NCBI GenBank assembly: GCA_030650425.1
Contig: JAUSED010000008.1
Span: 4,554-68,553, forward strand
Length of the DNA stretch: 64,000 nucleotides
Reading direction: 5' to 3'
Source of the DNA: Candidatus Omnitrophota bacterium
Lineage (GTDB): Bacteria; Omnitrophota; Gorgyraeia; Gygaellales; Profunditerraquicolaceae
A program made the translations under genes and the position numbers. Of this stretch, positions 21,778 through 45,845 are shown piece by piece. The notes under the pieces are model-generated. The model did not search any database and had not been told where the DNA came from. It saw only the letters and a program-made list of their open reading frames with translations. Position 1 is the first letter of the stretch. Each line of letters opens with the position of its first letter.

Positions 21778-21915
21778 GGGACCGTTTCTATTTTTTCATA
21801 GTAGGGACACTTTTCTTTAGCCTGAAGGGGACACTTTCCTTTTGAGGCTTTCATTAGAGCCCTGACGGAAAGTGTCCCCTGAACGCCCTGAACGAGGAAA
21901 AATAGAAACGGTCCC
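21778..21915. repeat. composite element: TIR GGGACCGTTTCTATTTTTT ... AAAAATAGAAACGGTCCC enclosing GTAG-GGGACACTTTTC, GGGGACACTTTCC / GGAAAGTGTCCCC
   Basis: 138 bp; between the Lys-rich mini-protein gene and GT2. Confidence 0.75.
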
Positions 21916-21934
21916 AAGTTTCTCAGGTTTCTAT

Positions 21935-22702
21935 ATGCTAGAAGGCAAAAAAATTATAGTGGTGATGCCTGCTTATAACGCCGAGCTTACCTTAGAGCAG
22001 ACTTACCGTGACATCCCTAAGGGCTTGGTGGATGAGGTATTGGTTGTAGACGACCATAGCCGCGATAAGACCGTGGAGGTCTGCCGCAGGCTGGGCCTGC
22101 AGGTGTTTGTGCACGAAGATAACAAGGGTTATGGAGCAAACCAAAAAACTTGTTACAGGGAGGCGTTAAGAAGAGGGGCGGATGTCGTGATTATGCTTCA
22201 TCCTGATTACCAATATCCCCCGAGGTTAATCACCGCGATGGCCGGCTTGGTCGTTTCCGGGATGTTCGATATTGTTTTAGGGTCACGGATATTGGGCGGA
22301 ATGAGCCTAAAAGGAGGGATGCCGCTCTATAAATACATTTCAAACAGGTTCCTTACTTTGTTTGAGAATATCATTACAGGCGCGCAGCTCTCTGAGTACC
22401 ATACGGGTTACCGGGCTTTTTCCCGCGAGGTTTTACTGCGCCTTCCTTTGCTGGAGAACTCCGATGATTTTATTTTTGATAACCAGATCCTTGTTCAGGC
22501 AATCCGCTTTAATTATAGGATAGGCGAATTAACCGCGCCTTCCCGGTATACCAAAGAATCATCTTCGATTTCGTTAAAAAGAAGCATCGTTTATGGCTTG
22601 GGAGTAATCGTGACAGCCTTAAGCTTACTTTTAGAAAAATCAAATTTAATTAAATTCCGCATCTTCAATCCCAATGGCCGCAAAATCGACCTTACAATAT
22701 AG
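21935..22702 (+). CDS. family 2 glycosyltransferase, polyprenyl-phosphate sugar synthase type (DPM1/ArnC-like)
   Basis: ATG 21935 (ORF track start at 21872 lies inside a repeat element); VVDDHSRD and DxD-type motifs. Confidence 0.78.
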
Positions 22703-23879
22703 ACTGATTTTATTTCTGATTATTGCAGTAGCTGTTACGTTAATCTCCCCGACCTTTAAAAAAATACAGTTTGCCTCTGGCGTGGATGAAGGGTATTATT
22801 TTAAATATGCCGCTTTTATCTCCGCGAAAGGCTTATCCGGGTTCAGCGAGCTTTTCAAGGGATACCTTGGGAATCAGGAACATTGGCTTTTCCCCAGCCC
22901 GCTCAGAGCCGGTTACATAATTTTATCGGCGGTTTGGCTAAAAATATTCGGCCAGTCATTCATCAACCTGGCCTATTTTTCTTTATTCTGCTACGTGCTT
23001 TTTTTAGGGGTTAACTATTATTTTTCGAAGAAATATCTGGGCGGGCAACTCGCCTTATTATTCGTACTCCTGCTTGCCTTTTCGCCGCTGCAGCTGGCGA
23101 TGAGCAGGAGGGCGTTGGCCGAGGCAGCCGTTAATTTATTCTCCTCTTTATCGATTTGGTTCTTCTGGGATTTTTTACGGGAGCGCAAGCATAGAACATT
23201 TATTTTTTTCATCGCGGCGATGAGCGTAAATATTTTAATCAAAGAAAGTTCAGCCTTATTGGTTTTTACGTTCCTGATCTTATGGCTAATCGATAAATTT
23301 ATCTATCAAGGAAAGGCGGATTTTAAAGAATGCGCGTCTATTTTGATCTTTCCGCTGTTTGCCGCAGGGCTGGCCTTTTGGCTGTTAAGATGCCTCCCGT
23401 ATCTATTTAGCGCGATAAAAATAATCTTAAATTCTCCCGGGACTAATGCTTACGCGATCCAATTTGGCTCAGGGCCATGGTATCGTTATCTCATAGATTA
23501 TATGCTTCTTTCTCCATGGGCAGTTATTTTGGCATTGGGTTTCATTTTGCGTCTTTTATTAGGCAAAGCGGACAATGAGATGCACGCGTATTTCGCGGCC
23601 TTTTTTTTAGCCGCCTTTATTTTATTAAATATCTTTACCAAAAACGTTCGTTACGCGATTGTTTTGGATATGCCTATGCGTTTGTTTTCGCTGCTTATGC
23701 TGGAAAGAATCACCCGGAGGATCTTTCCTCAGCAGGCGATAAAATTACTTTCTGTTTTAGTCGTCGCGTTAGCATTCTCCGATTACTTTAATTTTTATGA
23801 GATATTTGTTCAAGGAGGGGTTTATGACCCGGCAAGCTTTCTTTTGCTTAAAGCCAAACATATCATTCCTTTCAATTAA
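22674..23879 (+). CDS. polytopic membrane glycosyltransferase, GT39/GT83 (PMT/ArnT-like)
   Basis: 401 aa, ~11 predicted TM segments; loop-1 motif [12 protein letters not shown] resembles DE(x)RYA of ArnT/PMT; follows the GT2. Confidence 0.65.
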
Positions 23880-23902
23880 TTATTCGCGCAGGTTAAAAAA
23901 TA

Positions 23903-26695
23903 ATGCAGAATGAATTTATTATTATCCGCGGGGCTAAAGAGCACAATTTAAAGAATATAAACCTTAAACTTCCCCGTAATAAACTGATCGTGGTCACCGG
24001 TTTATCCGGTTCAGGTAAATCCAGCCTCGCCTTTGATACAATTTACGCCGAAGGCCAACGCAGGTTTGTGGAAAGCCTCTCTAGTTATGCCCGGCAATTC
24101 TTAGAGAAATTACAGAAGCCGGATATAGAATACATATCCGGCTTATCTCCTGCTATTGCTATTGAGCAGAGGTCTGCCGGTTCCAATCCTCGTTCCACGG
24201 TGGCAACGCAAACCGAAATCTATGATTATTTAAGGATTCTTTTTAGCCGTATTGGCAGGGTATTTTGTTACCATTGCCAAGAGCCAATCCAGAGGCAGAG
24301 CGCGCAGGAAATTATCGAAAAGATCGTCTCTCTGCCGGCAGGGATAGATATCCAGATTTTGGCTCCGCTGGCGCGGGGAAAAAAGGGCGAACATAAGGAT
24401 ATATTATCCGGAATTCAGAAATCAGGATTTACGCGGGCGCGCGTTGACGGAAAGGTTTATGAATTACCCGTAAAATTAAAATTGGCTAAATATAAAATGC
24501 ATAACCTGGAAGTAGTGGTGGACAGGCTCACTCTTAGGGAAGGGATTAAAAATCGGCTTACGGATTCAGTCGAGACCGCGCTCAAGGTTGGCAAGGGCAT
24601 AGTTATTATTAGCCGGTTGAACCCGCCAACAGATTTAGTTTTTAGCGAACAATACGCCTGCGCTAAATGCGGGGTAAATTACGCGGAGGTTGAGCCGCGT
24701 ATTTTTTCTTTTAATTCTCCTTATGGAGCTTGTCCCGAATGTAATGGCTTGGGGACAAAAATTAAATTTGATTCCGATCTGGTTATCCCCGACAGGAGTA
24801 AATCGATAAACGAAGGCGCTATTGCCCCGTGGAAAAGAGGCGGGAGGGGTTATATCCTTTACTATCGCTGGCTGATCCGGGAATTGGCCGCGCGGCTGCG
24901 CTTTAATTTAGATACCCCGTTCAATAAATTATCCAAAGAAAATCAAAACGCGATCCTTTATGGCTCGAAAGAGTTTATTGGCAATAAACCTTTTGAAGGG
25001 GTAATCCCGCATCTGGAAAGATTATTCCGCGAATCAGATAGCGATTACCTGAAAGAAGAGATAACTAAGTTTATGACCAGTTCAGCTTGTCCGCTATGTA
25101 AAGGCGCCCGGCTCAAGAAGGAGAGCCTAGCGGTGAGGATTAGCGGGAAGAACATCTGGGAAGTTAGCCGGATGTCCATTAAAGAAGCGCGCCATTTTTT
25201 TAATCATCTTGAATTAAACGCCAAAGAAAAACTGATTGCTTATCAGGCGCTCAAGGAGATCATCCAAAAGTTAAGATTCTGTGTTGATGTCGGCCTCGAC
25301 TATCTTACCTTGGATAGAAAGAGCTCGACTCTTTCCGGAGGAGAGGCGCAGAGGATCCGTTTAGCTACTCAGGTTGGTTCAGGCCTGGTCGGAGTTTTAT
25401 ATGTCTTGGATGAGCCGAGTATCGGGCTGCATCAACGGGATAATGATAAGCTGCTGGCTACACTTAAGTCATTGAGGGATTTAGGGAATACTCTGCTGGT
25501 GGTTGAGCATGACGAATCAACCATTCTCAGCGCGGATTACGTGGTGGATTTAGGCCCGGGCGCAGGCAGGCATGGAGGCGAAGTGGTTTTTTCAGGAGTA
25601 AAAGAAGAGCTGTTAAAAGACAGGCATTCTTTGACCGCTAAATATTTACGCGGGGAATTAAAAATCGATTTACCGCAAAACAGGAGAAGCTGGCGTGACA
25701 AAAAGATGTTGGAGATAAAGGGAGCCAGCGAACATAATCTTAAGCATATCGATGCCAAATTTCCTTTAGGGATTTTTATCGGGGTTACCGGCGTATCCGG
25801 TTCAGGCAAATCCACTCTCGTTGATGAAATATTATTCCGGGCGCTCTCTCAAAGGCTTTATCGCGCGAAAGAAAAGCCCGGAGCCTTTAAAAAGATTACC
25901 GGTGTAGAATTTATTGATAAAGTGATTGTGGTGGATCAGTCGCCAATAGGCCGAACTCCCCGCTCTAACCCGGCTACTTATACGGGAGTGTTTAATTATA
26001 TCCGCGATATCTTCGCCCGGCTTCCTGAGTCGCGCGGCCGGGGTTATCAACCCGGAAGGTTCTCCTTTAATGTCAAAGGCGGCCGCTGCGAGGCATGTAT
26101 GGGCGATGGGATAAAAAAGATCGAGATGCATTTTTTGCCCGATGTCTATGTTAAATGCGATATCTGCAAGGGCTTAAGGTTTAACGAGGCAACTTTAGCC
26201 ATAAAATATAAAGGCAAGTCTATCGCCGACGTACTGGAGATGACCGTAGAAGAGGCCCGGGAGGCCTTTAATAATATCCCGGCTATAAAAAATACGCTTG
26301 CTTACTTATTCGATGTTGGTTTGGGATATATCCAACTCGGCCAATCCGCGACTACCTTATCCGGAGGAGAAGCGCAGAGGATTAAGCTTTCCAGCGAATT
26401 GAGCAAGCGCGCGACCGGCAACACACTTTACATCCTTGATGAGCCGACCACGGGCTTGCATTTTGCCGATGTGGCTAAATTAATCAATGTCTTGCAGAGG
26501 TTAGTCGATAAGGGGAATACGGTGATTGTTATTGAACATAATTTAGAGGTGATTAAAAGCGCGGATTATATCATTGATTTGGGACCCGAAGGCGGGGATA
26601 AAGGTGGAGAGTTGGTTGCCTCAGGCAGCCCGGAAGAAATTATCCGGAATCAAGACTCCTACACAGGCCAGTTTCTTAAAAAAATATTGCTATGA
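23903..26695 (+). CDS. uvrA: excinuclease ABC subunit A
   Basis: 930 aa; two ABC ATPase modules (GLSGSGKSSLAFDT, GVSGSGKSTLV) and zinc-finger Cys clusters. Confidence 0.93.
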   Translation: MQNEFIIIRGAKEHNLKNINLKLPRNKLIVVTGLSGSGKSSLAFDTIYAEGQRRFVESLSSYARQFLEKLQKPDIEYISGLSPAIAIEQRSAGSNPRSTVATQTEIYDYLRILFSRIGRVFCYHCQEPIQRQSAQEIIEKIVSLPAGIDIQILAPLARGKKGEHKDILSGIQKSGFTRARVDGKVYELPVKLKLAKYKMHNLEVVVDRLTLREGIKNRLTDSVETALKVGKGIVIISRLNPPTDLVFSEQYACAKCGVNYAEVEPRIFSFNSPYGACPECNGLGTKIKFDSDLVIPDRSKSINEGAIAPWKRGGRGYILYYRWLIRELAARLRFNLDTPFNKLSKENQNAILYGSKEFIGNKPFEGVIPHLERLFRESDSDYLKEEITKFMTSSACPLCKGARLKKESLAVRISGKNIWEVSRMSIKEARHFFNHLELNAKEKLIAYQALKEIIQKLRFCVDVGLDYLTLDRKSSTLSGGEAQRIRLATQVGSGLVGVLYVLDEPSIGLHQRDNDKLLATLKSLRDLGNTLLVVEHDESTILSADYVVDLGPGAGRHGGEVVFSGVKEELLKDRHSLTAKYLRGELKIDLPQNRRSWRDKKMLEIKGASEHNLKHIDAKFPLGIFIGVTGVSGSGKSTLVDEILFRALSQRLYRAKEKPGAFKKITGVEFIDKVIVVDQSPIGRTPRSNPATYTGVFNYIRDIFARLPESRGRGYQPGRFSFNVKGGRCEACMGDGIKKIEMHFLPDVYVKCDICKGLRFNEATLAIKYKGKSIADVLEMTVEEAREAFNNIPAIKNTLAYLFDVGLGYIQLGQSATTLSGGEAQRIKLSSELSKRATGNTLYILDEPTTGLHFADVAKLINVLQRLVDKGNTVIVIEHNLEVIKSADYIIDLGPEGGDKGGELVASGSPEEIIRNQDSYTGQFLKKILL

Positions 26696-29097
26696 AAATA
26701 AGGGACCGTTTCTATTTTTCCCTGGTAGGAGACATTTTCCTTTGCGTCAGAAAGGGACATTTTCCTTTTGAAGTTCTAGTTAGAGCCCTGACGGAAAGTG
26801 TCCCTTTCTGCAAAGGTTGGAAAGTGTCCCCTACTGCGCCTAGAAACGGTCCCATTTTTTTTCTATTCGTTATTACGTTGGTATTGCTGCCTCTCTTTAG
26901 CCTATCCGCCGATACTTCAGCAGGTAAGGAAGCGGAAACATTCTTTATGGCCCAAAAGGCCTTTGAGGATGGTTTTTATGACGCGAGCCTCGGTTTTCTG
27001 GAGCGTTTCCTGAAAAATTATCCGGATTCCGCTAAGGCCATAGAAGCGAATCTGCTGGTCGGTGAATGTTATTTCCATCAGCATAAGTTTACTGCCGCTT
27101 TAGCCAAGTTCGAAGAGCTTTTAAAAGATCCTCAATCCAAAAGTATTAGAGATGTCCTTTACTATTGGATGGCTGAAGTTAATTTCAAAGGTGATAATTT
27201 TACTCAGGCTTCTTTATATTACAAGAATATTATTCAGGAATTTCCTGTTTCTGCTTACGCCCCCGCGGCGTATTATTCTTTAGGCTGGTGTTTATTTCAG
27301 GAACATAGATTTAAGGACGCGATCGGTTATTTTCAGGCCTTGATTAAGAAGTACCCTCAAGAACCCCAAGCTAAAGATGCCGGTTTTAAAATTATCGAAT
27401 GCCTGTATAACCTAAAAGATTACGCCCAGCTAAAAGAAAGAATAAATTCAAACATCGATGTCTTTCCCAAAGATGCCTTGCGCGTGGCCTACCTTTATTT
27501 TTATTTAGGCGAAGCTGATTATTATCTGGGAGATTTTGACGGGGCGCTCGCTGCCTATGCTAAAGTTTTAACGAACAGCCCCGACGCTAAAATGCAGGCG
27601 CTGACTAAACTGGATTTAGGCTGGGCATACCTTAAATTAAAACGCTACCAAGAGGCCGAAGATGTTTTCTTAGGGATAAAACAGAGTAATTTGGAGAAGG
27701 GAAGCCGGGATATCCTGTTATTGGGCAGGGCTATTGCTTCAATGGAGACTAACCGGATACATCAGGCTAAAAAACTATATGAAGAATTGTCAGTTCAGGC
27801 CAGCGACCCCTTGATTTCAATCCAAGGTTTGATCGGCAGGGCGGATGCCCTTTATAATTTGGCTGACTACGCGGAAGCCTCTAAGGCTTACCAAGAGGCA
27901 TTGGCCAAAGTAAATCTAAAAGGAGCCTATCGTCAGATAATCGATAAATTATATTATAATTTAGGCTGGTCTTTGCTGAAACAAGGGTATATCCTTGAGG
28001 CTATTACAGCGTTTCAAAGGGTGATTGATTTAAGCAGCGACGCTACATTTAGAGCAGGCGCTCTTTGTCAGATAGGAGATGCCTATCAGGAGGGGGCGGA
28101 TTATAAAAAAGCCGAAGAGGCATATAAATTATTATTGAAGGAATACCCGGGTTCTCATTATAACGATTATACATTATATCAATTGGGTTCAGTCTGTTTA
28201 AAAGAAGCAAAAATCAATGAAGCAATTTTAAACCTGATCCTTTTAGAAAAGAAATTTTCTTCATCCAAATTTTTGGATGATGCCGCGTATACCCTTGGTT
28301 TAGCTTATTTCAATAAGCAGGATTATAATTTGGCGAAGGAGACCCTTAAAAAATTTCAGGACATATTTAAGAATAGCGATTTAAGGCCAAAGGCGCTTTA
28401 TCTTTTGGGAAATTGCCTCTATAGCTTGGGAGATTATCCTTCGGCTATACAGGTTTTCAAAGAAATCCCGAGGTTTACCGGTATTGAAGCTGAATTGGAA
28501 GAGAAAGCTGAGTACGGGGTGGCGGACGCGCTTTATCAGATGGGGCAGGAGGAAGAGGCGCTTGCGCGATTTAAGGCTTTACGCTCTAAATATCCCGGCT
28601 CAAGCCTTGCCCCGGATATCCTCTGGTGGTTGGGGAGCTATTATTATCAGCATAATGAAGTGGAGCTGGCGCAGAGGTATTTTTTGTCGCTTATACAGGA
28701 TTTCCCTAAGAGTAATTTATTAGCCGACGCTTATTACGGCTTAGGCCTTACCTTAATGGATGGGCCAAAGGCACAGGAGGCTCTGGATAATTTTAGAAAG
28801 GCGCTTGCTTTAAATAATCCCGAGATTAAGCCTAAGGCAGCGGTAGCGATGGCTGAAATCGAAGAGGCGAAGGGGAACATTGATCAGGCAGCTAAAGATT
28901 ATCTGGAAGCGATTAAACTATCCGGACAGGATAATAAACTTACCGCGACAGTTCTTTTAAGGTTAGGTAGAATCTATGAAGATAAGAATAATATTCAGGA
29001 AGCCTTAAAGGTTTATTCCAAGATATTAGATATGAATATAGCGGAGTCCAAATACGCCGAAGAGCGGATTGCCAGCCTTAAGCCCAGCGTTAAATAA
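26692..29097 (+). CDS. large tetratricopeptide-repeat protein, signal/anchor after residue ~55; start uncertain
   Basis: ATG 26692 overlaps uvrA stop; first ~54 codons run through composite repeat 26702-26853; hydrophobic IFFLFVITLVLLPLFSLSA then many TPR units. Confidence 0.6.
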   Translation: MKIRDRFYFSLVGDIFLCVRKGHFPFEVLVRALTESVPFCKGWKVSPTAPRNGPIFFLFVITLVLLPLFSLSADTSAGKEAETFFMAQKAFEDGFYDASLGFLERFLKNYPDSAKAIEANLLVGECYFHQHKFTAALAKFEELLKDPQSKSIRDVLYYWMAEVNFKGDNFTQASLYYKNIIQEFPVSAYAPAAYYSLGWCLFQEHRFKDAIGYFQALIKKYPQEPQAKDAGFKIIECLYNLKDYAQLKERINSNIDVFPKDALRVAYLYFYLGEADYYLGDFDGALAAYAKVLTNSPDAKMQALTKLDLGWAYLKLKRYQEAEDVFLGIKQSNLEKGSRDILLLGRAIASMETNRIHQAKKLYEELSVQASDPLISIQGLIGRADALYNLADYAEASKAYQEALAKVNLKGAYRQIIDKLYYNLGWSLLKQGYILEAITAFQRVIDLSSDATFRAGALCQIGDAYQEGADYKKAEEAYKLLLKEYPGSHYNDYTLYQLGSVCLKEAKINEAILNLILLEKKFSSSKFLDDAAYTLGLAYFNKQDYNLAKETLKKFQDIFKNSDLRPKALYLLGNCLYSLGDYPSAIQVFKEIPRFTGIEAELEEKAEYGVADALYQMGQEEEALARFKALRSKYPGSSLAPDILWWLGSYYYQHNEVELAQRYFLSLIQDFPKSNLLADAYYGLGLTLMDGPKAQEALDNFRKALALNNPEIKPKAAVAMAEIEEAKGNIDQAAKDYLEAIKLSGQDNKLTATVLLRLGRIYEDKNNIQEALKVYSKILDMNIAESKYAEERIASLKPSVK
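26702..26853. repeat. composite element with TIR GGGACCGTTTCTATTTTT ... (CT)AGAAACGGTCCC enclosing four GGGACAxTTTCC-type cores
   Basis: Immediately after the uvrA stop; overlaps the 5' part of the TPR-protein ORF. Confidence 0.75.
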
Positions 29098-29107
29098 AGG
29101 TAAATAA

Positions 29108-29126
29108 AAAGGTGACTGTCACCTTT
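29108..29126. repeat. palindrome AAAGGTGACTGTCACCTTT after the TPR gene
   Basis: Perfect 9-bp arms. Confidence 0.6.
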
Positions 29127-29142
29127 AACCCCTAGAAAATAG

Positions 29143-29170
29143 TTGACAGAAGTCATATTTATTATAAAAT
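29143..29170 (+). promoter_or_regulatory. sigma70-like promoter (TTGACA-16-TAAAAT) for the small-gene/pil operon
   Basis: 19 nt upstream of ATG 29189. Confidence 0.35.
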
Positions 29171-29188
29171 AAAATTCTGGAGGAGAAA

Positions 29189-29395
29189 ATGATTACAGAA
29201 ATAGGCATCGTTGCCGGAGAGATATGGCATTTTTTAGACCAGCATGGAGAGGTTAGCTTAGTTGAATTGGTTAAGGGTATAGATAAACCTCGGGATAATG
29301 TGCTGATGAGTTTGGGTTGGCTTGCCAGAGAAGGGCATGTACTTTTACAGCAGGCAGGGAATGACTACAAAGTATCTTTAAGAAAAGATGCCTAA
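29189..29395 (+). CDS. small winged-helix-like protein (68 aa), unknown function
   Basis: ATG 29189 with GGAGGAG RBS; sigma70-like promoter 29143-29170 upstream. Confidence 0.55.
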   Translation: MITEIGIVAGEIWHFLDQHGEVSLVELVKGIDKPRDNVLMSLGWLAREGHVLLQQAGNDYKVSLRKDA

Positions 29396-29795: not shown

Positions 29796-29801
29796 AAACT
29801 A

Positions 29802-29880
29802 GGGACCGTTTCTATTTTTCTAAAGTAGGGGAGGTTTAAACCTCCCCTACCGTCTTAAAAATAGAAACGGTCCCTTTTTT
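29802..29880. repeat. composite element: TIR GGGACCGTTTCTATTTTT / AAAAATAGAAACGGTCCC enclosing the 26-bp perfect palindrome GTAGGGGAGGTTTAAACCTCCCCTAC; followed by TTTTTT
   Basis: Hairpin plus T-run could act as an intrinsic terminator after the PilX-like gene. Confidence 0.75.
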
Positions 29881-29962
29881 GCTGATTAGCGGTAAGTCTA
29901 AGGAAGTCTATATAAGAAAACACTTGACAAACTAAGACTGTTATGTTTTAATTAAGTTCGTT

Positions 29963-31701: not shown

Positions 31702-31702
31702 T

Positions 31703-34369: not shown

Positions 34370-34424
34370 GAGAAGGTGACAGTCACGTATTTCGTGACTG
34401 TCACCTTCTCTTGCTCGCAATGAC
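34370..34424. repeat. perfect 18-bp-stem hairpin GAGAAGGTGACAGTCACG-TATTT-CGTGACTGTCACCTTCTC plus TGCTCGCAATGAC half-site, after pilQ
   Basis: pilQ/pilB intergenic. Confidence 0.7.
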
Positions 34425-37475: not shown

Positions 37476-37476
37476 T

Positions 37477-37574
37477 GGGACCGTTTCTATTTTTCCCTAT
37501 TAGGGGACACTTTCCAACAGTCAGTAAACGCGTGTAGGAAAGTGTCCCCTGAACGAAAAAATAGAAACGGTCCC
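37477..37574. repeat. composite element (TIRs as above) enclosing ATTAG-GGGACACTTTCC ... GTAG-GAAAGTGTCCCC with ACGCGT-centred spacer
   Basis: Inner 66 bp nearly identical to 39010-39075 and 45766-45830. Confidence 0.75.
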
Positions 37575-37597
37575 AAGTTTTTCGGTAATAAAAATCC

Positions 37598-37625: not shown

Positions 37626-37647
37626 AGATTCAGGTATTATTTAAACT

Positions 37648-37696: not shown

Positions 37697-37709
37697 AAAA
37701 GGAGGAGAG

Positions 37710-38090: not shown

Positions 38091-38109
38091 TAAATTTATT
38101 TGTTTAAGA

Positions 38110-38508
38110 ATGTTTAAGAATATAAGAAATATTGAAAATGGTTTTACGTTAATAGAATTAATAATTGTAGTGGCAATTGTGCTTGCGTTGTCAAGTATTG
38201 CTATAGTTAAGTATGGGAATATTACTGAAAAAGCGCGTTCTGCCGAAGCCTACGCGGTATTGGCTGATATTGCTGCTTCGGAGGTCAGTTATTCAATAGA
38301 ACATAATGACGCTTACACTGGAACTTGGTCAGATTTAGATAGGTATAATGCTGCGCCGGCAAGCGAGAATTTTACCTTTTTTCTTGCCGACGCGGTTAGC
38401 AGCGGGTATGTCAATGCCGCGCATATCACAGGCAGGGGAACAGTGGATTATTATATGTGCATAAGGGGAGGAGAGCGGGGGACCATCGTTCCGACAAATT
38501 GCCCATGA
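38110..38508 (+). CDS. type IV pilin
   Basis: MFKNIRNIENG/FTLIELIIVVAIVLALSSIAIV. Confidence 0.8.
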   Translation: MFKNIRNIENGFTLIELIIVVAIVLALSSIAIVKYGNITEKARSAEAYAVLADIAASEVSYSIEHNDAYTGTWSDLDRYNAAPASENFTFFLADAVSSGYVNAAHITGRGTVDYYMCIRGGERGTIVPTNCP

Positions 38509-38522
38509 GAAATGTAAAAAAA

Positions 38523-38581
38523 GGGGACGGTTCTATTTTTCCGGCGTTAGACTCAAGAAAAATAGAACCGTCCCCTTTTTT
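38523..38581. repeat. variant composite element GGGGACGGTTCTATTTTT ... AAAAATAGAACCGTCCCC + TTTTTT between pilin 2 and pilin 3
   Basis: Variant TIR (CGG instead of CCG) shared with the intragenic copy at 44280-44332. Confidence 0.7.
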
Positions 38582-38585
38582 CCAG

Positions 38586-38984
38586 TTGGCGCGGGGGTTT
38601 ACTCTCATCGAGCTTATCTTGGTGGTTACGGTGATTATTACGCTGGCTTTAATTGCTATTCCCAACTATAATAAGTCAAAAGACAGGGCGATAGAAAAGG
38701 AAGGTATTTCTAACGTCAGGCTGATAGCCGCGGCTGAGAGAATATACAAGATGGAAAGCAGCGCTAATGTTTATGTTGCTTGTGCTAATGCCACTACTTG
38801 TAATACAGCGCTTAATTTGAATTTGAACGCGACTAACTGGAGTTACAAAGTTGAGCTTGCTTCAGGTTCAGGGGTCGCGACCATAACCGCTACTGGATCT
38901 GCTGTCTCTGGTTGTAGCTATACCTTGACGAGCGCCAATTTTGATGCAGAACCAACAGTACCAGCAGGCTCAAGCTGCCCTTAG
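38586..38984 (+). CDS. type IV pilin; start ambiguous (TTG 38586, or ATG 38505 reading through a repeat element)
   Basis: ARG/FTLIELILVVTVIITLALIAIP; ATG 38505 overlaps the previous stop (ATGA) and would add 27 repeat-encoded residues. Confidence 0.7.
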   Translation: MARGFTLIELILVVTVIITLALIAIPNYNKSKDRAIEKEGISNVRLIAAAERIYKMESSANVYVACANATTCNTALNLNLNATNWSYKVELASGSGVATITATGSAVSGCSYTLTSANFDAEPTVPAGSSCP

Positions 38985-38991
38985 GAAAAAA

Positions 38992-39093
38992 GGGACCGTT
39001 TCTATTTTTCCCTGTTAGGGGACATTTTCCAACAGCCAGTAAACGCGTGTAGGAAAGTGTCCCCTTAGACTCTAGAAAAATAGAAACGGTCCC
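38992..39093. repeat. composite element (TIR GGGACCGTTTCTATTTTT / AAAAATAGAAACGGTCCC) with inner REP pair
   Basis: Between pilin 3 and pilin 4. Confidence 0.75.
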
Positions 39094-39112
39094 ATGTTTC
39101 CCTTAGCTTAGT

Positions 39113-39469
39113 ATGAATAAAAAAGCCCTTAGCTTACTAGAAATTATTATTTCCACGGTAATTCTGTCATTAGTGATTACCGGCTTGGTTAATGTTTTTG
39201 TAGCGGGGAAGCAATATATCCAGCATAGTCGTCTGCGCATGGCTGGTGGAGAGATAGGAAAGTTTTTTCTCGATCCTTTGCAGCAGTATGTCCGCCAGGA
39301 TACCTGGGATGCCAGTTGTTTTGGCACGAATAAGGTTATAGCCAATTGTCCAAATGTTCCCTCTACAAGCAACCCTTACACCACCGCTTATTCTATCAGC
39401 GACCTTAGCGCTGATACCAATATCAAGAAAGTAAAAGTAACAATCACCTGGCCCAGTCCCGGCTCCTGA
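39113..39469 (+). CDS. minor pilin / pseudopilin-like protein
   Basis: 118 aa; N-terminal LSLLEIIISTVILSLVITGLV pilin-like hydrophobic helix with Glu at +5. Confidence 0.6.
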   Translation: MNKKALSLLEIIISTVILSLVITGLVNVFVAGKQYIQHSRLRMAGGEIGKFFLDPLQQYVRQDTWDASCFGTNKVIANCPNVPSTSNPYTTAYSISDLSADTNIKKVKVTITWPSPGS

Positions 39470-39474
39470 CCCCA

Positions 39475-40092
39475 ATGTTTTCTAAGCCCCTTAAATCCGT
39501 TACCCTGATCGAATTAATCATCGCCATAATCTTGCTCGCGGTAATTATCTTAGGGGTCAACAATATCGGCATCTTCAGCCGCTATCAGGTTGTTTCTTCG
39601 GACCGCCGGGCCAAACTGCAAAATGATGTTTCACGCTGCCTTGAGCATATGACAAAGTATCTTTCTACGGCAATAGGCAATGAGGAGGTGCCTTTGGGAG
39701 AGGATACGGTGGTCTATTTCAAAGAGAACTCTCCCCGCACCATCCTGTCTGTTTTTACGGATGCCAATAGCAATGGTTTAATAGATTCAGGGGGAGCGGA
39801 TTATTGGATTGGGTATAAATTTGACGATTCCACTCATAAATTTACTTATTGTAGCCAATGCCAAAACCGGGCATGCGTGGCATGCTCCGTTACTGAGGAT
39901 GCATTAGCGAACAATATAACCGCATTTTCTGCCTCTAAAAGTGGTACTCCAGCTAACGATTTCTCTAAAGGTAACTATATAAACCTTGGCCTAACTGCTT
40001 GTTGGGATCCTGCTGGGAGCTGTAATACCCCCGATAACCCCAGTGTTACTATGTCTACTAGTATCAGTCTGCCTTCAGTCGCCACCAATTAA
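39475..40092 (+). CDS. minor pilin-like protein
   Basis: 205 aa; SVTLIELIIAIILLAVIILG N-terminus; Cys-rich C-terminal half. Confidence 0.6.
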   Translation: MFSKPLKSVTLIELIIAIILLAVIILGVNNIGIFSRYQVVSSDRRAKLQNDVSRCLEHMTKYLSTAIGNEEVPLGEDTVVYFKENSPRTILSVFTDANSNGLIDSGGADYWIGYKFDDSTHKFTYCSQCQNRACVACSVTEDALANNITAFSASKSGTPANDFSKGNYINLGLTACWDPAGSCNTPDNPSVTMSTSISLPSVATN

Positions 40093-40097
40093 AACCT

Positions 40098-40111
40098 GGG
40101 GGACGCTCCCC
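40098..40111. repeat. GGGGGACGCTCCCC palindrome upstream of the RAYT gene
   Basis: Inverted partner at 40839-40851. Confidence 0.6.
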
Positions 40112-40209
40112 AAGGTGCCAGCCTACTTCTAATTTCAGGTATTTTCTTAAAAAAATTTCGTTAGATTTGCTGCCTTCATGCGTCTATTAATAGTGAGGAG
40201 GTGGTAAAT

Positions 40210-40800
40210 ATGTCAAGGAGACAAAGGTTAGTTTTTGAGAGGTCATACTACCATGTTTTTACCAGGGGAAATGACCGCAAGCGGATTTTTAGAAAGGAAG
40301 CAGATTATCAGGTTTTTCTTTCGATAATCAGGAAGTACTTGGAGAAATTCCAGATCTCCATAACAAACTATTGCCTTATGCCTAATCATTTGCATTTGCT
40401 TATTTTTATTGAGACAGGTGGAGAATTGTCTAAGTTTATGAAAGCCGTCTTGCAGGTATATGCCAATTACCATAGGAAAGAATATGGCTCAACCGGGTTT
40501 CTCTATCAAAATAGGTTCAAAAGTTTATTGATCAAGGAGGAGAGTTATTTAATCGAGTGCGCTAGATACATAGAAAGAAATCCATTAAGAGCAAAATTAG
40601 TAAGCGATATTTTTGCTTGGCCATGGAGCAGCCTTTCTTACTATGCAAAAGGAATTAAAGATGGTATAATTACGAAAGTAAATCCGATTTTTGAGGCTTT
40701 GGCAGATACACCCGTGGAGAGAAGAGAAGCCTATATCAAGTATGTCTTACAGGAAAGAGCATATGAACAAATTCTTGATAAAGAATTTGACATAAAATAA
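40210..40800 (+). CDS. IS200-like Y1 transposase of the REP-associated tyrosine transposase (RAYT) type
   Basis: ATG 40210 after GAGGAGGTGG; HuH motif NHLHLL and catalytic Tyr region ARYIERNP; flanked by inverted GGGGACGCTCCCC / GGGGAGCGTCCCC at 40098-40111 and 40839-40851. Confidence 0.8.
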   Translation: MSRRQRLVFERSYYHVFTRGNDRKRIFRKEADYQVFLSIIRKYLEKFQISITNYCLMPNHLHLLIFIETGGELSKFMKAVLQVYANYHRKEYGSTGFLYQNRFKSLLIKEESYLIECARYIERNPLRAKLVSDIFAWPWSSLSYYAKGIKDGIITKVNPIFEALADTPVERREAYIKYVLQERAYEQILDKEFDIK

Positions 40801-40823
40801 CTTAAAATAGTCGAAAATACGTT

Positions 40824-40851
40824 GTAGAGTGTCCCTTTGGGGAGCGTCCCC
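40824..40851. repeat. GTAG-AGTGTCCC-TTTG-GGGAGCGTCCCC downstream of the RAYT gene
   Basis: Inverted orientation relative to 40098-40111. Confidence 0.6.
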
Positions 40852-40916
40852 AAGCTCAAGCTTTACAGATTGATAATTGTATTGACAAAGTGTAAATTAT
40901 ACTATATACTTTTATC

Positions 40917-42080
40917 ATGATAAAACGAACCATTTCGGAAAAGATTCTTCATTACGCGCGCCGTTATCCGGTCGTTACTCTTACAGGGCCGCGCCAGTCC
41001 GGGAAGACGACTTTATGCAAGGCGTTATTCCCAAAAAAGAAGTATTTTTCCCTTGAGAACATCGACATACGCGATTACGCCAGGACCGACCCGAGGTCTT
41101 TTTTAAACGAGTGCCTCGAAGATGGGGCGGTTATCGATGAAATACAGCGGGTTCCGGAACTGGTTTCATATATTCAGGAAATAGTGGACACAAAAGACAG
41201 GCCGGGCCTTTTCGTTTTGACAGGAAGCCAGAATTTCCATCTTTTGGATACGGTCAGTCAAAGCCTTGCCGGCAGGACTGCCTTGGCTGTTCTTTTACCC
41301 TTTTCATATAACGAGATCTATACTAACAAGATAGTCTCTATAGATAAACTTCTTTTTACAGGCTTTTACCCGCGCATTCACGATAAAAGGCTCAATCCTG
41401 CTGAAGCGCTTTCTTTTTATGTCAGCACATATCTGGAGCGCGATATCCGCGCGCTGATTAACGTTAAGGATCTCGCGAAATTCGAGAAATTCCTTAAATT
41501 ATGCGCCGGAAGAACGGCTCAGATCATAAATTTGTCAAATCTTGCTAATGATTGCGGAGTCAATCATAACACCGTCAAAAGTTGGTTAGGCGTGCTTGAG
41601 GCAAGCTACGTGATATTTTTTGTGCGGCCGCATCACGCCAATTTCGGCAAGCGGCTGATTAAAGCTCCGAAACTATATTTTACCGATTGCGGGCTTGCCG
41701 CGCATCTTTTGGATATTCAAAACGCCAAGCATATCGTCCATCATCCGTTAAAAGGCGCTTTATTCGAGAATTTCGCGGTTGCCGAGCTTCTGAAGGCGCG
41801 GACAAACCAAGGTAAAAACAGCAATATTTATTTCTTTCGCGACAATATCGGTAACGAGGTTGATATCCTTCTTGAGAATGGCGCGACTCTCCGGCCGGTT
41901 GAGATAAAGCTTGGAATGACCATAAGCGACGATTATTTTAAAGGCCTGCGCTATTATCAAAAGATTAATCAGAAGAATGCTGTCAAACCAGCATTGATAT
42001 ATGGTGGCAATGAAGACCAGCGCCGCGGAGTGTTTGATATATTCAGCTATAGAAATGCGGAAAAGATTAATCTTACGTAA
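40917..42080 (+). CDS. AAA-family ATPase with DUF4143 C-terminal domain
   Basis: 387 aa; Walker [10 protein letters not shown]; layout typical of AAA_14/DUF4143 proteins. Confidence 0.7.
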
Positions 42081-42094
42081 GATTTAACTTCTAT

Positions 42095-42167
42095 GGGGCT
42101 GTAGCTCAGCTGGGAGAGCGCCTCGTTCGCAACGAGGAGGCCAGGAGTTCGATCCTCCTCAGCTCCA
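42095..42167 (+). tRNA. tRNA-Ala (anticodon CGC)
   Basis: 73 nt cloverleaf GGGGCUG/UA/GCUC...GAGC/G/CCUCG-UUCGCAA-CGAGG/AGGCC/AGGAG-UUCGAUC-CUCCU/CAGCUCC/A; G3:U70 Ala identity pair; CCA not encoded. Confidence 0.85.
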
Positions 42168-42180
42168 CTTTCATATAAAA

Positions 42181-43671
42181 ATGATAAGAGATAAACGTTT
42201 CGCCCTCGCAATGGCTGGGGTTAGTATTTGTATTTTTTGTTTTGGGTTTTGCCATTTATTATGCGCCGAAAATATTAAAGAACCCTGCGTTGCCGGCACA
42301 TTTTATCCCGCGAGCCCACAAGAGCTTTCTCAGATGGTTGATAACTATCTGGAAGAGGCTAACCCTGAAAAACCAAGCGGTGAAATCTTCGGCTTAATCT
42401 CTCCGCACGCCGGCTACGGTTATTCAGGCAAGGTTGCCGCCTTCGGCTATAAACTTATTAAAAATCAGCCGTATAAAACAGTAGTGATTTTGGGGACAAG
42501 CCACCATTATCCTTTTAGCGGAGCTTCAGTTTATCCCGATGGAGTATTTAAAACTCCGCTTGGCGCGATTACCATAGACGATAAATTTACCCAAAAACTG
42601 CTTAATCGGAATAAGGACGTATACTTTGCTCCGGAGGCATTTAGGGAAGAGCATAGCGTGGAAGTCCAGCTGCCATTCTTACAAAAAACACTTAATCACT
42701 TCAAGATTGTGCCGATAGTTATCGGCGATTGTTCTTTGTCGGCCTGCCAGTCGCTCGCGTCCTTGCTTAAAGAGGCGATTGGTGAGCGCAGAGATGTTTT
42801 GGTGGTTGTTTCTACCGATATGTATCATGGTTACGATTATGATGAGGCCAATAAAATCGACGTGCTTACCCTCGCCGCTATCAAAAATATGGATGCCGAA
42901 GCCCTTTATTGGGCCTTGCGCGACGAAAAGATGCAGCTCTGCGGCGGATTTGGCGTGGTGACGGCATTGATTTTAGCCAAAGGCCTGGGCCATGATCAAA
43001 TAAGCGTATTGAAACATACAAATTCCGCAGAAGTTACCGGTAACCAGAAGAAGGGGATCTGGACCGTCGGATATGCAAGTTGTGTGATTGACCAGCCAAA
43101 GGGAGAAAAGGCTATGTTAAATAAAGCTCAGAGAAAAAGATTGCTTGAAATCGCGCGCAGCGCAATCGAAACTTATCTAAAAACCGGTAAGAAGCCGCAG
43201 TTGAACGAGACCGATCCGTTGCTTTTAAAGACGATGGGGGCTTTTGTTACCCTGAAGAAACACACAGAGCTGCGTGGTTGCATTGGAAATCTCGTAGGTG
43301 AAAAGGCTTTATATTCTACGGTGAGCGATATGGCGGTTGAAGCTGCGACAGAGGATTACCGTTTTCGTTCTCACCCGGTAGAATTATCCGAACTTAAAGA
43401 TATCGAAATCGAAATTTCTGTTTTATCTCCGATGGTAAAAATTGATAATCCTGATCAAATCAAGCTTGGAACACACGGTGTTTTGATACGTAACGGCCCT
43501 AGGAGCGGAGTATTTCTTCCTCAGGTAGCCACTGAAACAGGCTGGTCAAAAGATGAATTTATGTCTAATCTGTGCATCCACAAAGCTGGCTTAGATGCAG
43601 ACGCTTGGAAAGACAAGTCTACCGAAATCTATATCTTTACTGCCGAAGTATTTTCAGAGAAAGACAAATGA
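42181..43671 (+). CDS. MEMO1-family (AmmeMemoRadiSam protein B-like) domain fused to AMMECR1 domain, with N-terminal signal/TM segment
   Basis: 496 aa; hydrophobic/Cys-rich N-terminus; MEMO motifs [13 protein letters not shown] and [10 protein letters not shown]; AMMECR1 signature [18 protein letters not shown]. Confidence 0.75.
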
Positions 43672-43688
43672 AAAATAGAAACGGTCCC
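43672..43688. repeat. solo right terminal repeat AAAAATAGAAACGGTCCC
   Basis: Immediately after the MEMO-AMMECR1 stop codon. Confidence 0.55.
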
Positions 43689-43709
43689 AAGTTTCCCCAG
43701 GTATTTAAA

Positions 43710-44495
43710 ATGCATAGATTCTTTTGTACAACTTCAGATATCACAAGTACCGAAATAATCATTAAGGATAAAGAACAGGCGCACCATATAAGAGATGTCC
43801 TCAGGCTTAAGCCGGGTAAACAGGTGGAGGTATTTGATGAAAAGGGAAATGAATATAGCTGCGAGATTCGCGAAATAAAAGATAAAATCTATCTTGAGAT
43901 TAAAAATAAAATTGCCGCCGATAAAATAAGCCAGAGAATAAAACTAACTGTAGCTTGCGCCCTGCCCAAGAAGTCTAAGCTAGACGATATCATTGATAAA
44001 CTTGTCCAGTTGGGAGTACACAGGATCATCCCGTTAAAAACAGAACGCGTAATCGTTAAGTTAGATAAATATAAAGAAGCAGGCCGGCTTGAGCGCTGGA
44101 GAAAAATCGCGCTTAGCGCCGCCAAACAAAGTAAGAGAAATGACTTACCTGTAATTGAGCCGGTTCAGGATTTACAAAAGGTTATCGCGCGATCGCAAGA
44201 ATTTGATTTAAAGCTTATACCGTATTTAGGAGGAGAGCGTAAAAATCTAAAGGATGTTTTAGATAAATTCTTAAAAAAAGGGGACGGTTCTATTTTTTCG
44301 GCATCAGACTCTAGAAAAATAGAACCGTCCCCTTGTTTTTTAATTCTTATCGGCCCGGAAGGAGATTTCTCTGAAGCAGAGGTAAAGCTAGCCGTAGCCG
44401 CGGGATTTATTCCGGTAACCCTTGGTGATTTAGTTTTACGCGTGGATACCGCGGCCATCGCGGCGGCCAGCTTCATTACTATGTACACCTCGTAG
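43710..44495 (+). CDS. rsmE: 16S rRNA (uracil1498-N3)-methyltransferase RsmE with an in-frame repeat insertion
   Basis: ATG 43710 (MHRFF...); C-terminal SPOUT motif LILIGPEGDFSEAE...LGDLVLRVDTAAIAA; residues GDGSIFSASDSRKIEPSP are encoded by a repeat element at 44280-44332. Confidence 0.8.
   Translation: MHRFFCTTSDITSTEIIIKDKEQAHHIRDVLRLKPGKQVEVFDEKGNEYSCEIREIKDKIYLEIKNKIAADKISQRIKLTVACALPKKSKLDDIIDKLVQLGVHRIIPLKTERVIVKLDKYKEAGRLERWRKIALSAAKQSKRNDLPVIEPVQDLQKVIARSQEFDLKLIPYLGGERKNLKDVLDKFLKKGDGSIFSASDSRKIEPSPCFLILIGPEGDFSEAEVKLAVAAGFIPVTLGDLVLRVDTAAIAAASFITMYTS
44280..44332. repeat. variant composite element GGGGACGGTTCTATTTTTT ... AAAAATAGAACCGTCCCC inside rsmE, in frame
   Basis: Encodes GDGSIFSASDSRKIEPSP just before the GPEGD SPOUT motif. 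Confidence 0.7.
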
Positions 44496-44515
44496 GTGTA
44501 CATAGGTTTACTTGT

Positions 44516-45733
44516 ATGCCTACCGTAAAATTTCATACCTTAGGTTGTAAAGTCAATCAATACGATACTCAAAGTATCAGAGAACGTTTTTTGGAACAGG
44601 GATTCAGGGAAATCCGCGGCCGGGCTAAGCCAGCGGATTTCTACTTGATCAATACCTGTACCGTAACAGCGGTGGCCGACCAGAAATCCCGCGGAATTAT
44701 CCGGCGCTCGATTAAGGAAAACCCCAAAGCCAAAATAATCGTTACCGGATGCCTGGTTAAACAAGATAACGCTAAATTAGCTAAGCTAAAAGGCGTGAGT
44801 CTCATTATAAGCAAAAGTTTTTTTAGCGAAGGTATAAGCGATTTCTGCTCGCATACGCGAGCTTTCTTAAAAATTCAAGATGGTTGCGATAATTTTTGCT
44901 CTTATTGTAAAGTACCTTTGGCGCGCGGCAGGTCAAGAAGCAAACACTTAAATGACCTGATCAAGGAAGCCAATCGTTTGAGCGATAAAGGCTTTAAAGA
45001 GATTGTGCTTACCGGGATCTGTTTAGGCGCCTATGGCCGGGATTTAAGCCCAAAAATAGATTTAGTCAAGGCGATAGACGCGTTGGAAAAGATCGATGGA
45101 ATCTTGAGAATCAGGTTAAGTTCGATCGAGGCAGGGGATGTTACGGAAGCCTTAATCAACAAAATAGCCAAATCGCATAAGCTCTGCCGGCATCTGCATA
45201 TTCCTATTCAAAGCGGCAATGATCAAATCTTGAAAAAAATGCGGCGCAGATACACGCGCAAATTTTATCTTAAGCTGATCAAAAAAATAAGAAATAAAAT
45301 TCCAGAGGCGGCTATTACTACGGATTGCCTGATTGGTTTTCCGGGAGAGCTCCAGAAACATTTTCGGGATACCCTAGATTTAGTGAAGCGTATCTTACCG
45401 TTAAAAGTGCATATCTTTCCTTATTCGGCAAGAGAAGGGACCACTGCCTATTTAGAGCCGGCTTTTGGCTCCTTATCAGCGAAGGATATTAAAGAGCGTA
45501 TCATCAGCCTTAAGAATGTCGCTCGTTCTTGCTCTCAAGATTATCAGAAACGTTTTCTTGGAAGAGCGCTGCCTGTTCTCTTTGAAGGCAATTCCAAAGA
45601 AAAAAAAGATTATTGGGAAGGTTATACCGATAATTATATCAAGGTTTTATTTAAGTCCCGGCGGATTTTAAAAAATAAACTTGTTTGCGTCAAGCTTGAA
45701 AGTATTATTGGAGATTATGTTATAGCTGCTTAA
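44516..45733 (+). CDS. radical SAM methylthiotransferase, MtaB/MiaB-like
   Basis: 405 aa; N-terminal MTTase Cys triad, radical SAM CDNFCSYC, C-terminal TRAM-like domain. Confidence 0.78.
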   Translation: MPTVKFHTLGCKVNQYDTQSIRERFLEQGFREIRGRAKPADFYLINTCTVTAVADQKSRGIIRRSIKENPKAKIIVTGCLVKQDNAKLAKLKGVSLIISKSFFSEGISDFCSHTRAFLKIQDGCDNFCSYCKVPLARGRSRSKHLNDLIKEANRLSDKGFKEIVLTGICLGAYGRDLSPKIDLVKAIDALEKIDGILRIRLSSIEAGDVTEALINKIAKSHKLCRHLHIPIQSGNDQILKKMRRRYTRKFYLKLIKKIRNKIPEAAITTDCLIGFPGELQKHFRDTLDLVKRILPLKVHIFPYSAREGTTAYLEPAFGSLSAKDIKERIISLKNVARSCSQDYQKRFLGRALPVLFEGNSKEKKDYWEGYTDNYIKVLFKSRRILKNKLVCVKLESIIGDYVIAA

Positions 45734-45747
45734 AACACGGAAAACAC

Positions 45748-45845
45748 GGGACCGTTTCTATTTTCCCTAGTAGGGGACACTTTCCAACAGCCAGTAAACG
45801 CGTGTAGGAAAGTGTCCCCTGAGCGAAAAAAATAGAAACGGTCCC
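45748..45845. repeat. composite element (TIRs GGGACCGTTTCTATTTT / AAAAAAATAGAAACGGTCCC) with GTAG-GGGGACACTTTCC ... GTAG-GAAAGTGTCCCC
   Basis: After the MtaB-like gene. Confidence 0.75.

Follow-up and report, generated by a model that had tools for sequence, protein, structure and literature searches.

What are the short inverted repeats that recur at the ends of genes in a 64-kb stretch of Candidatus Omnitrophota DNA, and how do they come to be there? The genes of this stretch (hereafter the window, in which all coordinates are given unless a locus is named) lie on the + strand throughout and are ordinary in content (lysA, uvrA, a type IV pilus operon, AmmeMemoRadiSam genes, rsmE and mtaB), and its RsmE and its transposase are identical to proteins of one Candidatus Omnitrophota metagenome-assembled genome (MAG). 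An initial annotation had described the repeats as composites resembling miniature inverted-repeat transposable elements (MITEs), with terminal inverted repeats of 17–18 bp. We favour, with moderate confidence, a different reading, in which they constitute one family in a superfamily akin to repetitive extragenic palindromic (REP) units and their inverted doublets (REPINs), namely short, palindromic, non-autonomous mobile elements that occupy gene 3′ ends, leave no target-site duplication and are probably driven by a REP-associated tyrosine transposase (RAYT). Comparison of the window with related loci shows what appears to be a palindromic unit copied whole and without target duplication, its stem kept by compensated changes, that is gained, lost and replaced at the 3′ ends of genes throughout a lineage at phylum level.

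Searching both strands of the window for the 17-mer GGGACCGTTTCTATTTT with up to three mismatches returned 17 matches, whereas dinucleotide-preserving shuffles averaged 0.31 and never gave more than 2. These matches resolve into seven scored inverted pairs, the left arm of an eighth element and two solo arms (Table 1). Both solo ends and seven of the eight complete copies first described are therefore borne out; at 26702–26853 only the left arm scores, the right one being truncated to 13 of its 18 nt. For two copies the ends originally given, 29880 and 38581, had taken in the T-run beyond the arm. The outer repeat is, as proposed, one dispersed family, with the qualification that two of the pairs, 38523 and 44280, represent a second subfamily, which differs from the main form at three positions, each of them compensated in the opposite arm. 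All eight elements fold into nested hairpins, with energies of −33 to −79 kcal/mol and z scores of −8 to −12.5 relative to mononucleotide shuffles. In a search of the window against Rfam 15, tRNA alone reached the gathering threshold and no family was found for the elements, whether by gathering or by E-value threshold; they gave just sub-threshold matches to long hairpins resembling miRNA precursors.

The family extends well beyond this region, as a scan for the exact 17-mer in one genome per GTDB species (596 Gb) made evident. Among the matches listed, it occurs in more than 112 stretches; about 80 of the at least 112 derive from Omnitrophota assemblies or from bins labelled Planctomycetales, mostly as hairpins, and at least one of the Planctomycetales-labelled bins is syntenic with the window. 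About 31 of the listed matches are single and fall in unrelated phyla, which we attribute to chance because this number fits the estimate of ~69 (2 × 596 Gb / 4^17). A scan of viral contigs gave 12 single-arm matches from ~4 independent sequences and no hairpins, and these were likewise counted as chance. Arms that are 100% identical are present in at least ten other Omnitrophota assemblies whose genes are just 66–94% identical, and ~90 hairpins were found in related loci, which makes the hairpin a lineage-wide feature rather than the product of a local duplication. Megablast of the window against the related loci collected by the arm scan gave no match, and of the at least 112 stretches listed by that scan none came from the genome of the window; the assembly KR13 (KR13_N1.mb.50) is syntenic with the window at 66–76% identity.

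To describe the anatomy of the element we used 90 non-redundant hairpins, gathered by the similarity of both arms to the consensus. The commonest loops are 17–19 nt long, giving an element of 53–55 nt, with a second group having loops of 5–8 nt and a few composites; the smallest copies (39–44 bp) consist of two arms and a small loop alone. Few of the 17-nt loops share a recognisable motif when loop orientation is compared with the direction of transcription. The 18-nt arms are perfect in most copies, and the seven bases outside each arm are part of the element: at positions 5 and 6 the left side has A and the right side T almost without exception, positions 1–4 and 7 are variable yet pair above shuffled partners, and the sequence is random from position 8 outward. 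When the resulting 25-bp stem was evaluated on 80 copies, 89.3% of cells paired, versus 83.3% in shuffles; 15 of the 25 pairs had double changes and 149 cells were changed on both sides, a result that none of 500 shuffles reached, and slid controls were 44–60% paired. Because the sequences outside the arms are complementary and co-vary, the true element is a longer palindrome that reaches ~7 nt beyond the supposed 17–18-bp terminus on each side. In the co21_270 assembly most copies carry one fixed T:G mismatch, and the spread of such a subfamily indicates that the hairpin was propagated as a whole and not re-selected base by base.

These properties bear directly on the classical MITE interpretation, in which the repeats would be deletion derivatives of an insertion sequence (IS) with a DDE transposase, bounded by 17–18-bp terminal inverted repeats, moved in trans and capturing cargo between their ends. 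The copies are indeed short, non-autonomous and dispersed, with perfect inverted ends, variable interiors and a presence that differs between genomes, and an IS30-family transposase open reading frame (ORF) lies in KR13 locus L104, which also carries solo arms. We nonetheless regard this origin as very improbable. Target-site duplications, which the initial annotation had suggested looking for, were absent beyond chance at lengths of 3 nt or more: among the 90 copies, identical flanks of 3, 4, 5, 6 and 8 nt numbered 1, 2, 0, 0 and 0, approximately the shuffled expectation, and an excess of 2-nt identities arises because AT is self-complementary. The co-varying flanks, the compensation of all three subfamily differences in both arms and the reduction of the smallest copies to arms and loop are equally unlike a MITE. 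Nor did ~0.9 Mb of related loci, a sample that includes no complete genome, contain a long element bounded by the arms, an arm pair 0.4–6 kb apart around a transposase gene, or any other parent autonomous element with these ends; the window itself encodes a RAYT-type HUH transposase with flanking REPs.

Orthologous sites in related genomes were found both filled and empty. Two window genes overlap by 4 nt at 17457, where KR13 L095 has a 76-nt spacer with a hairpin, and the genes at 63658 are adjacent and the site is empty, its counterpart in L019 being filled; since copies occupy sites that are gene overlaps in relatives, new DNA must have been inserted. The sites filled in the window at 37477, 38523, 38992 and 45748 are empty in L117, L119, L124 and L113. 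Three of these loci (L117, L119 and L124, with transposases 69–85% identical) have no element downstream of pilC, in the space between the pilin genes or downstream of mtaB; instead, unique hairpins follow their first pilin gene, while the composite at 45748 is missing after mtaB in both L113 and L115. Nothing at the orthologous KR13 site corresponds to the solo arm at 14407, and the KR13 orthologue of the 21778 site has just a short GGGGACGGTTC-TGA-GAACCGTCCCC hairpin. As the family occurs beyond the region and sites exist in both states, neither the local confinement nor the lack of empty sites that would have spoken against mobility is what we found.

Sites also change occupant. At 10029–10139 and 11326–11390 the window holds GGGACTGTCCC pairs where KR13 has the outer hairpin. 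Between KR13 and C19, which are 89–94% identical, the hairpin is kept at orthologous sites with its inner REP swapped, as a basic copy versus a composite or as subfamily 1 versus subfamily 2, and at one site an 8-nt loop stands opposite a 19-nt loop; between KR13 and MH0.169 (~82–86% identical), one loop is inverted. A further comparison concerns rsmE, whose site is filled in L113 and empty in L115, the genomes being 97–98.5% identical, with a 63-nt segment that includes the hairpin in one and a 27-nt segment that does not in the other.

Hairpin contexts comprise 49 tandem, 13 convergent and 5 divergent gene arrangements. In the 49 tandem cases the hairpin lies a median of 19 nt from the stop codon; 65% of copies are found within 30 nt, and some fill the entire space between convergent genes, leaving 1-nt gaps. 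The location immediately 3′ of a stop codon that was reported at the outset thus applies to most copies, the exception in the window being 44280–44332, which lies in frame inside rsmE. A T-run directly follows four of the eight window copies. A consensus terminator scan restricted to loops of 3–8 nt calls none of the elements and is uninformative for them, as their loops are longer than that. A canonical intrinsic terminator, GGAGGAGAGGATAAAATTCTCTCCTCC followed by T8 (46464–46500), lies downstream of the pilin gene at 46037–46438; it is conserved in L113 (5590–5630) and suggests that this lineage uses termination by a hairpin plus a U-run. Stop-codon proximity, A/T-rich flanks, T-runs, that canonical terminator and the unique hairpins that relatives carry at the same places together suggest that the elements probably act as bidirectional terminators or as protectors of RNA 3′ ends.

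Such a role raises the question of whether mobility is needed at all. A functional hairpin selected by the host (a terminator, a 3′ stabiliser or a protein-binding site) and homogenised by general recombination or gene conversion would account for arms that stay identical while genes diverge, for the tight apposition to stop codons and the filling of convergent gaps, for A- and T-rich flanks with T-runs in a lineage that has canonical terminators, and for orthologous sites that retain some hairpin while its family changes, as with the GGGACTGTCCC pairs and the hairpins after the pilin gene. We consider this explanation rather unlikely, in that a terminator needs neither a fixed 18–25-nt sequence nor a 17–19-nt loop, new DNA has appeared where the genes of relatives overlap, subfamilies bearing a fixed mismatch are propagated and the terminator scan does not call the elements (loops >8 nt). 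In-frame copies in rsmE, priA and an ORF with a C39 domain, where termination would harm, speak against it as well. Host selection is nevertheless compatible with a REP/REPIN-like element as a second layer.

The in-frame copies are few. The rsmE copy is translated as GDGSIFSASDSRKIEPSP, directly upstream of the conserved LIGPEGDF motif of RsmE, and several Omnitrophota RsmE homologues have a subfamily-2 hairpin at the same point that reads RDGSI...NRTVP, while other homologues are without it. In priA (L078 4886–4938, STD1_64) the copy falls between the 3′-DNA-binding domain and the helicase, and in L096 (3919–3971, C19) it falls within the Peptidase_C39 domain of a 1,659-aa ORF. Each arm can be read without a stop in two of its three frames, which makes in-frame copies possible. 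These three are the confirmed set once ORF-start artefacts are removed, with three further in-ORF calls outside it; the calls in L107, L055, L046, L009 and L003 proved to be artefacts in which the ORF start extends upstream through the stop-free hairpin. Overall, the repeat is overwhelmingly extragenic, and coding copies are whole hairpins that form a small minority.

This distribution also bears on the possibility that the repeat is a DNA uptake sequence read by type IV pilus competence machinery, like the DNA uptake sequence (DUS) of Neisseria or the uptake signal sequence (USS) of Pasteurellaceae. In favour of this are a type IV pilus system encoded in the window, the conservation of the motif between species and its frequent occurrence as inverted pairs at gene 3′ ends; DUS pairs can form terminators. 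Single arms are rare here, however, and mostly have decayed or degenerate partners; what is conserved is not a 9–12-mer but a whole palindrome of ~25 nt, loop and 25 nt with co-varying flanks; the motif is nearly missing from coding DNA save as complete in-frame hairpins; and its density in the window is ~1 per 6 kb and patchy. An uptake signal therefore strikes us as barely plausible.

The composites that dominate the window have a nested architecture. Five elements surround other REP-type palindromes, either REPa pairs (GGGGACACTTTCC...GGAAAGTGTCCCC) or GTAGGGGAGGTTTAAACCTCCCCTAC, in line with the differing inner cargo of the initial annotation, and both types also occur without outer arms (Table 1). 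Because the cargo palindromes stand alone as well, they represent separate repeat families within the loop. The REPa cores of 37477, 38992 and 45748 differ at 1–2 of 49 aligned positions, which agrees with the ~95% identity noted earlier, and the inner cluster of 26702–26853 is ~79% complementary to the free-standing copy at 1799–1901. At 38992 the end of the basic loop, a remnant common to 38523 and 44280, persists in the alignment beside the inserted REPa pair, which shows that the composites began as basic 53-nt elements into whose loop other palindromes were inserted. Composites of the 29802 type are present in KR13 as well (L043 5121–5199 and L064 1359–1437).

A candidate for the mobilising enzyme lies in the window itself. 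REPINs pair two REPs as an inverted doublet that folds into a hairpin, and their mobilisation is ascribed to RAYTs that are single-copy and vertically inherited (PMC3116915, PMC3337134, PMC5581495); a single-copy, syntenic RAYT bracketed by inverted REPs is the classic picture of such a gene (PMC3116915, PMC5581495). The product of 40210–40800 matches Pfam Y1_Tnp (2.9e-17) and scores 74 bits with the NCBIfam REP-associated tyrosine transposase model (cut-off 80) versus 27 bits with that for IS200. In profile searches of the PDB its best match is 4er8, TnpArep of E. coli (E=2.1e-6), IS200/IS605 transposases being at ~3e-3 or weaker, while phmmer of the single sequence against the PDB gave no match. 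We found 517 close homologues, nearly all of ~196 aa and mostly on one contig apiece, whose named sources are all Omnitrophota or Omnitrophica. The gene is syntenic in L117, L119 and L124, after the pilus operon and before a tRNA and the AmmeMemoRadiSam genes, and within one contig the RAYT is 81% identical compared with 67% for RsmE. Every RAYT orthologue examined has inverted GGGGAGCGTCCCC-type hairpins on both sides, some upstream copies bearing 1–2 changes.

Two similarities connect this gene with the dispersed repeats. The REPa arm GGGACACTTTCCAAC and the reverse complement of the downstream flank of the gene, GGGACACTCTACAAC, agree at 13 of 15 positions, and a GGGAC...GTCCC foot is common to all hairpin families of the window (GGGACTGTCCC, GGGGACACTTTCC, GGGGACGGTTC.. 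and GGGACCGTTTC..). A GTAG-type head with an imperfect palindromic core is present in the inner cargo families GTAGGGGACACTTTCC, GTAGGGGAGGTTTAAACCTCCCCTAC and GTAGGGACTGTCCCC. The link between the RAYT and the dispersed repeats is partial.

Several observations weigh against a RAYT-driven, REP/REPIN-like element. Among 124 loci the exact GGGGAGCGTCCCC is found beside RAYT genes only and is not the dispersed hairpin, and the RAYT-flanking REPs share with the outer hairpin just the GGGAC/GTCCC foot and a similarity in the AAAACC../..AAG flanks. The outer arm GGGACCGTTTCTATTTTT is without the GTAG head and without the internal palindromic core of classical REPs. The sole RAYT homologue in the KR13 loci (L051, 38% identity) has no such hairpins alongside and, for that reason, provides no link between RAYT and element. 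No clean insertion junction was recovered, the rsmE pair representing a replacement between 63-nt and 27-nt segments and not a simple insertion, and a hairpin that persists at one site with changing sequence would fit host selection for any terminator hairpin equally well. Two further points concern method: gathering copies by both arms inflates pairing in the 18-nt core, leaving the flanks unaffected, and ORF contexts come from a crude longest-ORF caller.

With these points taken into account, the REP/REPIN-like reading would operate as follows. The unit is two ~25-nt arms, each an A/T-rich, semi-conserved 7-nt flank and an 18-nt core (GGGACCGTTTCTATTTTT or the compensated GGGGACGGTTCTATTTTT), around a loop of typically 17–19 nt. 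The entire hairpin would be copied to new sites without duplicating the target, landing nearly always within a few bases past a stop codon. Occupied sites would later be overwritten or converted, with exchange of the loop or of the subfamily, either by re-insertion or by conversion between identical arms; insertion of other REPs into the loop yields the cargo-bearing composites that dominate the window. The enzyme would probably be the conserved single-copy RAYT, acting on the single-stranded hairpin through the shared stem foot. At the RNA level, very stable stems between A-runs and U-runs probably serve as bidirectional terminators or 3′-end protectors, a role that would explain why the elements are tolerated and retained at gene ends.

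A bolder version, which we consider decidedly unlikely, is that a domesticated, vertically inherited RAYT maintains a standard hairpin cassette as the general bidirectional terminator and insulator of the host, installed after stop codons, continually overwritten in place as loops and subfamilies are exchanged and other REPs nest within it, and tolerated even in frame in essential genes. If true, the system would be a host-beneficial distributor of regulatory elements rather than a selfish repeat, and one transposase would serve several otherwise unrelated hairpin families through the GGGAC/GTCCC foot.

Table 1. Hairpin elements, solo arms, free-standing cargo repeats and the RAYT locus in the window.
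Feature	Coordinates	Strand	Arms and content	Context
Solo left arm	14407–14424	+	GGGACCGTTTCTATTTTT	Downstream of the MNT-HEPN ORF (10 nt from its stop) and upstream of lysA (21 nt from its ATG)
Composite	21778–21915		Scored inverted pair; outer subfamily-1 arms enclosing three REPa (GGGGACACTTTCC-type) arms	
Composite	26702–26853		Full left arm, right arm TAGAAACGGTCCC; four-arm REPa cluster within, triple-nested hairpins	3′ of uvrA
Composite	29802–29874		Scored inverted pair; outer arms enclosing GTAGGGGAGGTTTAAACCTCCCCTAC	Followed by T6
Composite	37477–37574		Scored inverted pair; outer arms enclosing one REPa inverted pair	1 nt past the pilC stop
Basic 53-nt subfamily-2 element	38523–38575		Scored inverted pair (GGGGACGGTTCTATTTTT); 17-nt loop	Separates two pilin genes; T6 follows
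Composite	38992–39093		Scored inverted pair; outer arms and basic-loop remnant ..TAGACTCTAG, broken by a REPa pair	
REP hairpin upstream of RAYT	40095–40115		CCTGGGGGACGCTCCCCAAGG	Kept upstream of the orthologues examined
HUH/Y1 transposase, RAYT type	40210–40800	+	196 aa	Candidate mobilising enzyme
Flank downstream of RAYT	40824–40854		GTAGAGTGTCCC then TTTGGGGAGCGTCCCCAAG	Flanking REP at 40836–40854
Solo right arm	43671–43688	−	AAAAATAGAAACGGTCCC; 17-mer match at 43672	Shares one base with the AmmeMemoRadiSam A/B fusion gene, the final base of its TGA stop; upstream of rsmE (21 nt from its ATG)
Basic 53-nt subfamily-2 element	44280–44332		Scored inverted pair	In frame within rsmE
Composite	45748–45845		Scored inverted pair; outer arms enclosing one REPa pair	14 nt past the mtaB stop
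Free-standing cargo families	610–700		GTAGGGGAGGTTTAAACCTCCCC and one REPa pair	
Free-standing four-arm REPa cluster	1801–1904		Cargo unit of 26702–26853 in opposite orientation	

The window holds further repeats of related kinds. A second nested composite type at 46506–46576 has outer arms GTCATTGCG.../...CGCAATGAC around a GTAG-TTTAAA-CTAC palindrome (GTAGCGGACATTTAAATGTCCGCTAC), and its outer repeat recurs as an inverted pair at 3751–3826 and as single copies elsewhere (16031–16066 and 34407–34420). Two more REP-type families are GTAGGGACTGTCCCC, present as pairs at 42–83, 10014–10124, 11329–11390 and 18162–18222, and GGTGACTGTCACC, present as pairs and one single copy at 19775–19809, 29108–29126 and 34373–34407; all copies of both are intergenic and follow stop codons, and several are missing at the orthologous KR13 sites. 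Short tandem repeats of the AGAAGTC type (AGAAGTCAGAAGTCAGAA...) occur at 2460–2497 and 15816–15853. In C19, L009 carries four near-identical hybrid-subfamily hairpins (GGGGACGTTTCTATTTTT...AAAAATAGACGCGTCCCC) between 2466 and 5952, spaced 0.9–1.5 kb apart, and at least two of them are accompanied by repeated epimerase-like ORF fragments, which suggests segmental duplication.

Among neighbouring genes, the single ORF at 13515–14396, upstream of the first solo arm, has matches to two components of type VII toxin–antitoxin systems, the antitoxin MntA (a nucleotidyltransferase) and the toxin HepT (a HEPN RNase), which appear to be fused. Directly past the composite at 21778–21915 begins a gene pair (21930–23890) for a GT2 glycosyltransferase and a PMT_2-like membrane protein, which has negative AT skew and is missing from the syntenic KR13 L095. 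A DUF4143/AAA_14 ATPase gene (40917–42080) separates the RAYT from the tRNA (42095–42167) in the window only; in L117, L119 and L124 the tRNA comes directly after the downstream REP of the RAYT. A homologous ATPase gene adjoins the solo arms of KR13 L104, which number three, are right arms in the same orientation and lie ~1 kb apart (1592–1608, 2446–2462 and 3641–3657 of that locus), each following a small gene or gene pair (possible toxin–antitoxin modules) near the IS30-family transposase ORF. An attC-like cassette array was considered for these arms and rejected, as they have no partner arms and no integron core sites.

How does the Omnitrophota hairpin compare with systems described elsewhere? 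As in the REPIN/REP-RAYT systems of Pseudomonas and enterobacteria, it consists of extragenic inverted doublets that form a hairpin around a variable spacer, with no target duplication, compensated arm changes, singlets resembling decayed copies and persistence across related species, in genomes with several REP families and a single-copy, syntenic, strongly conserved RAYT with its own flanking REPs. It departs from them in that its arms have neither an internal imperfect palindrome nor a GTAG head, making the doublet the sole hairpin, in that the stem is 18–25 bp long and near-perfect with other REP families nested in its loop, and in that the REPs of the RAYT itself differ from the dispersed hairpin, with which they share the GGGAC/GTCCC foot.

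Other palindromic repeats offer partial parallels. Rickettsia palindromic elements (RPEs) are 100–150 bp long, and many lie within coding sequence, where they add a peptide segment without destroying the protein; the copies in rsmE, priA and the C39-domain ORF are likewise in-frame palindromes in genes, but coding copies are a small minority here and there is no sequence relationship. Correia elements of Neisseria, like other MITEs, are descended from DDE insertion sequences and duplicate their target, which for Correia is TA. The Omnitrophota hairpin is similarly small, non-autonomous and intergenic, with inverted ends, a possible ability to affect transcription and a presence that varies between strains, yet it has no target duplication and no parent IS was found for it in the ~0.9 Mb of loci. 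In enterobacteria, bacterial interspersed mosaic element (BIME) clusters combine palindromic units, and IS1397-type insertion sequences target REP loops; the window resembles both in bringing different palindromic units to one intergenic site and in insertion into the loop of an existing palindrome, and differs in that the inserts are REP-type palindromes rather than full insertion sequences and are strictly nested, not side by side.

To our knowledge, nearly all that is understood of REP/REPIN-RAYT systems comes from Proteobacteria, and there is still debate over whether they are selfish, mutualistic or domesticated. A literature search for palindromic repeats or REP-type systems in Omnitrophota found none. 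The elements described here are not a new principle; they are a clean, unusually well-conserved REP/REPIN-like example in an unstudied phylum. In this uncultured phylum of small genomes the contrasts are sharp: a RAYT of fixed synteny that exceeds a housekeeping methyltransferase in conservation, arms identical across genomes that are 66–94% identical, a stem foot common to several families, turnover in place at orthologous sites and in-frame coding copies. They form a compact system for comparative work on what a RAYT recognises and how its host benefits. For the annotation of Omnitrophota MAGs, hairpins of this kind lengthen ORF calls, cause genes to be split or fused and mark probable ends of transcripts.

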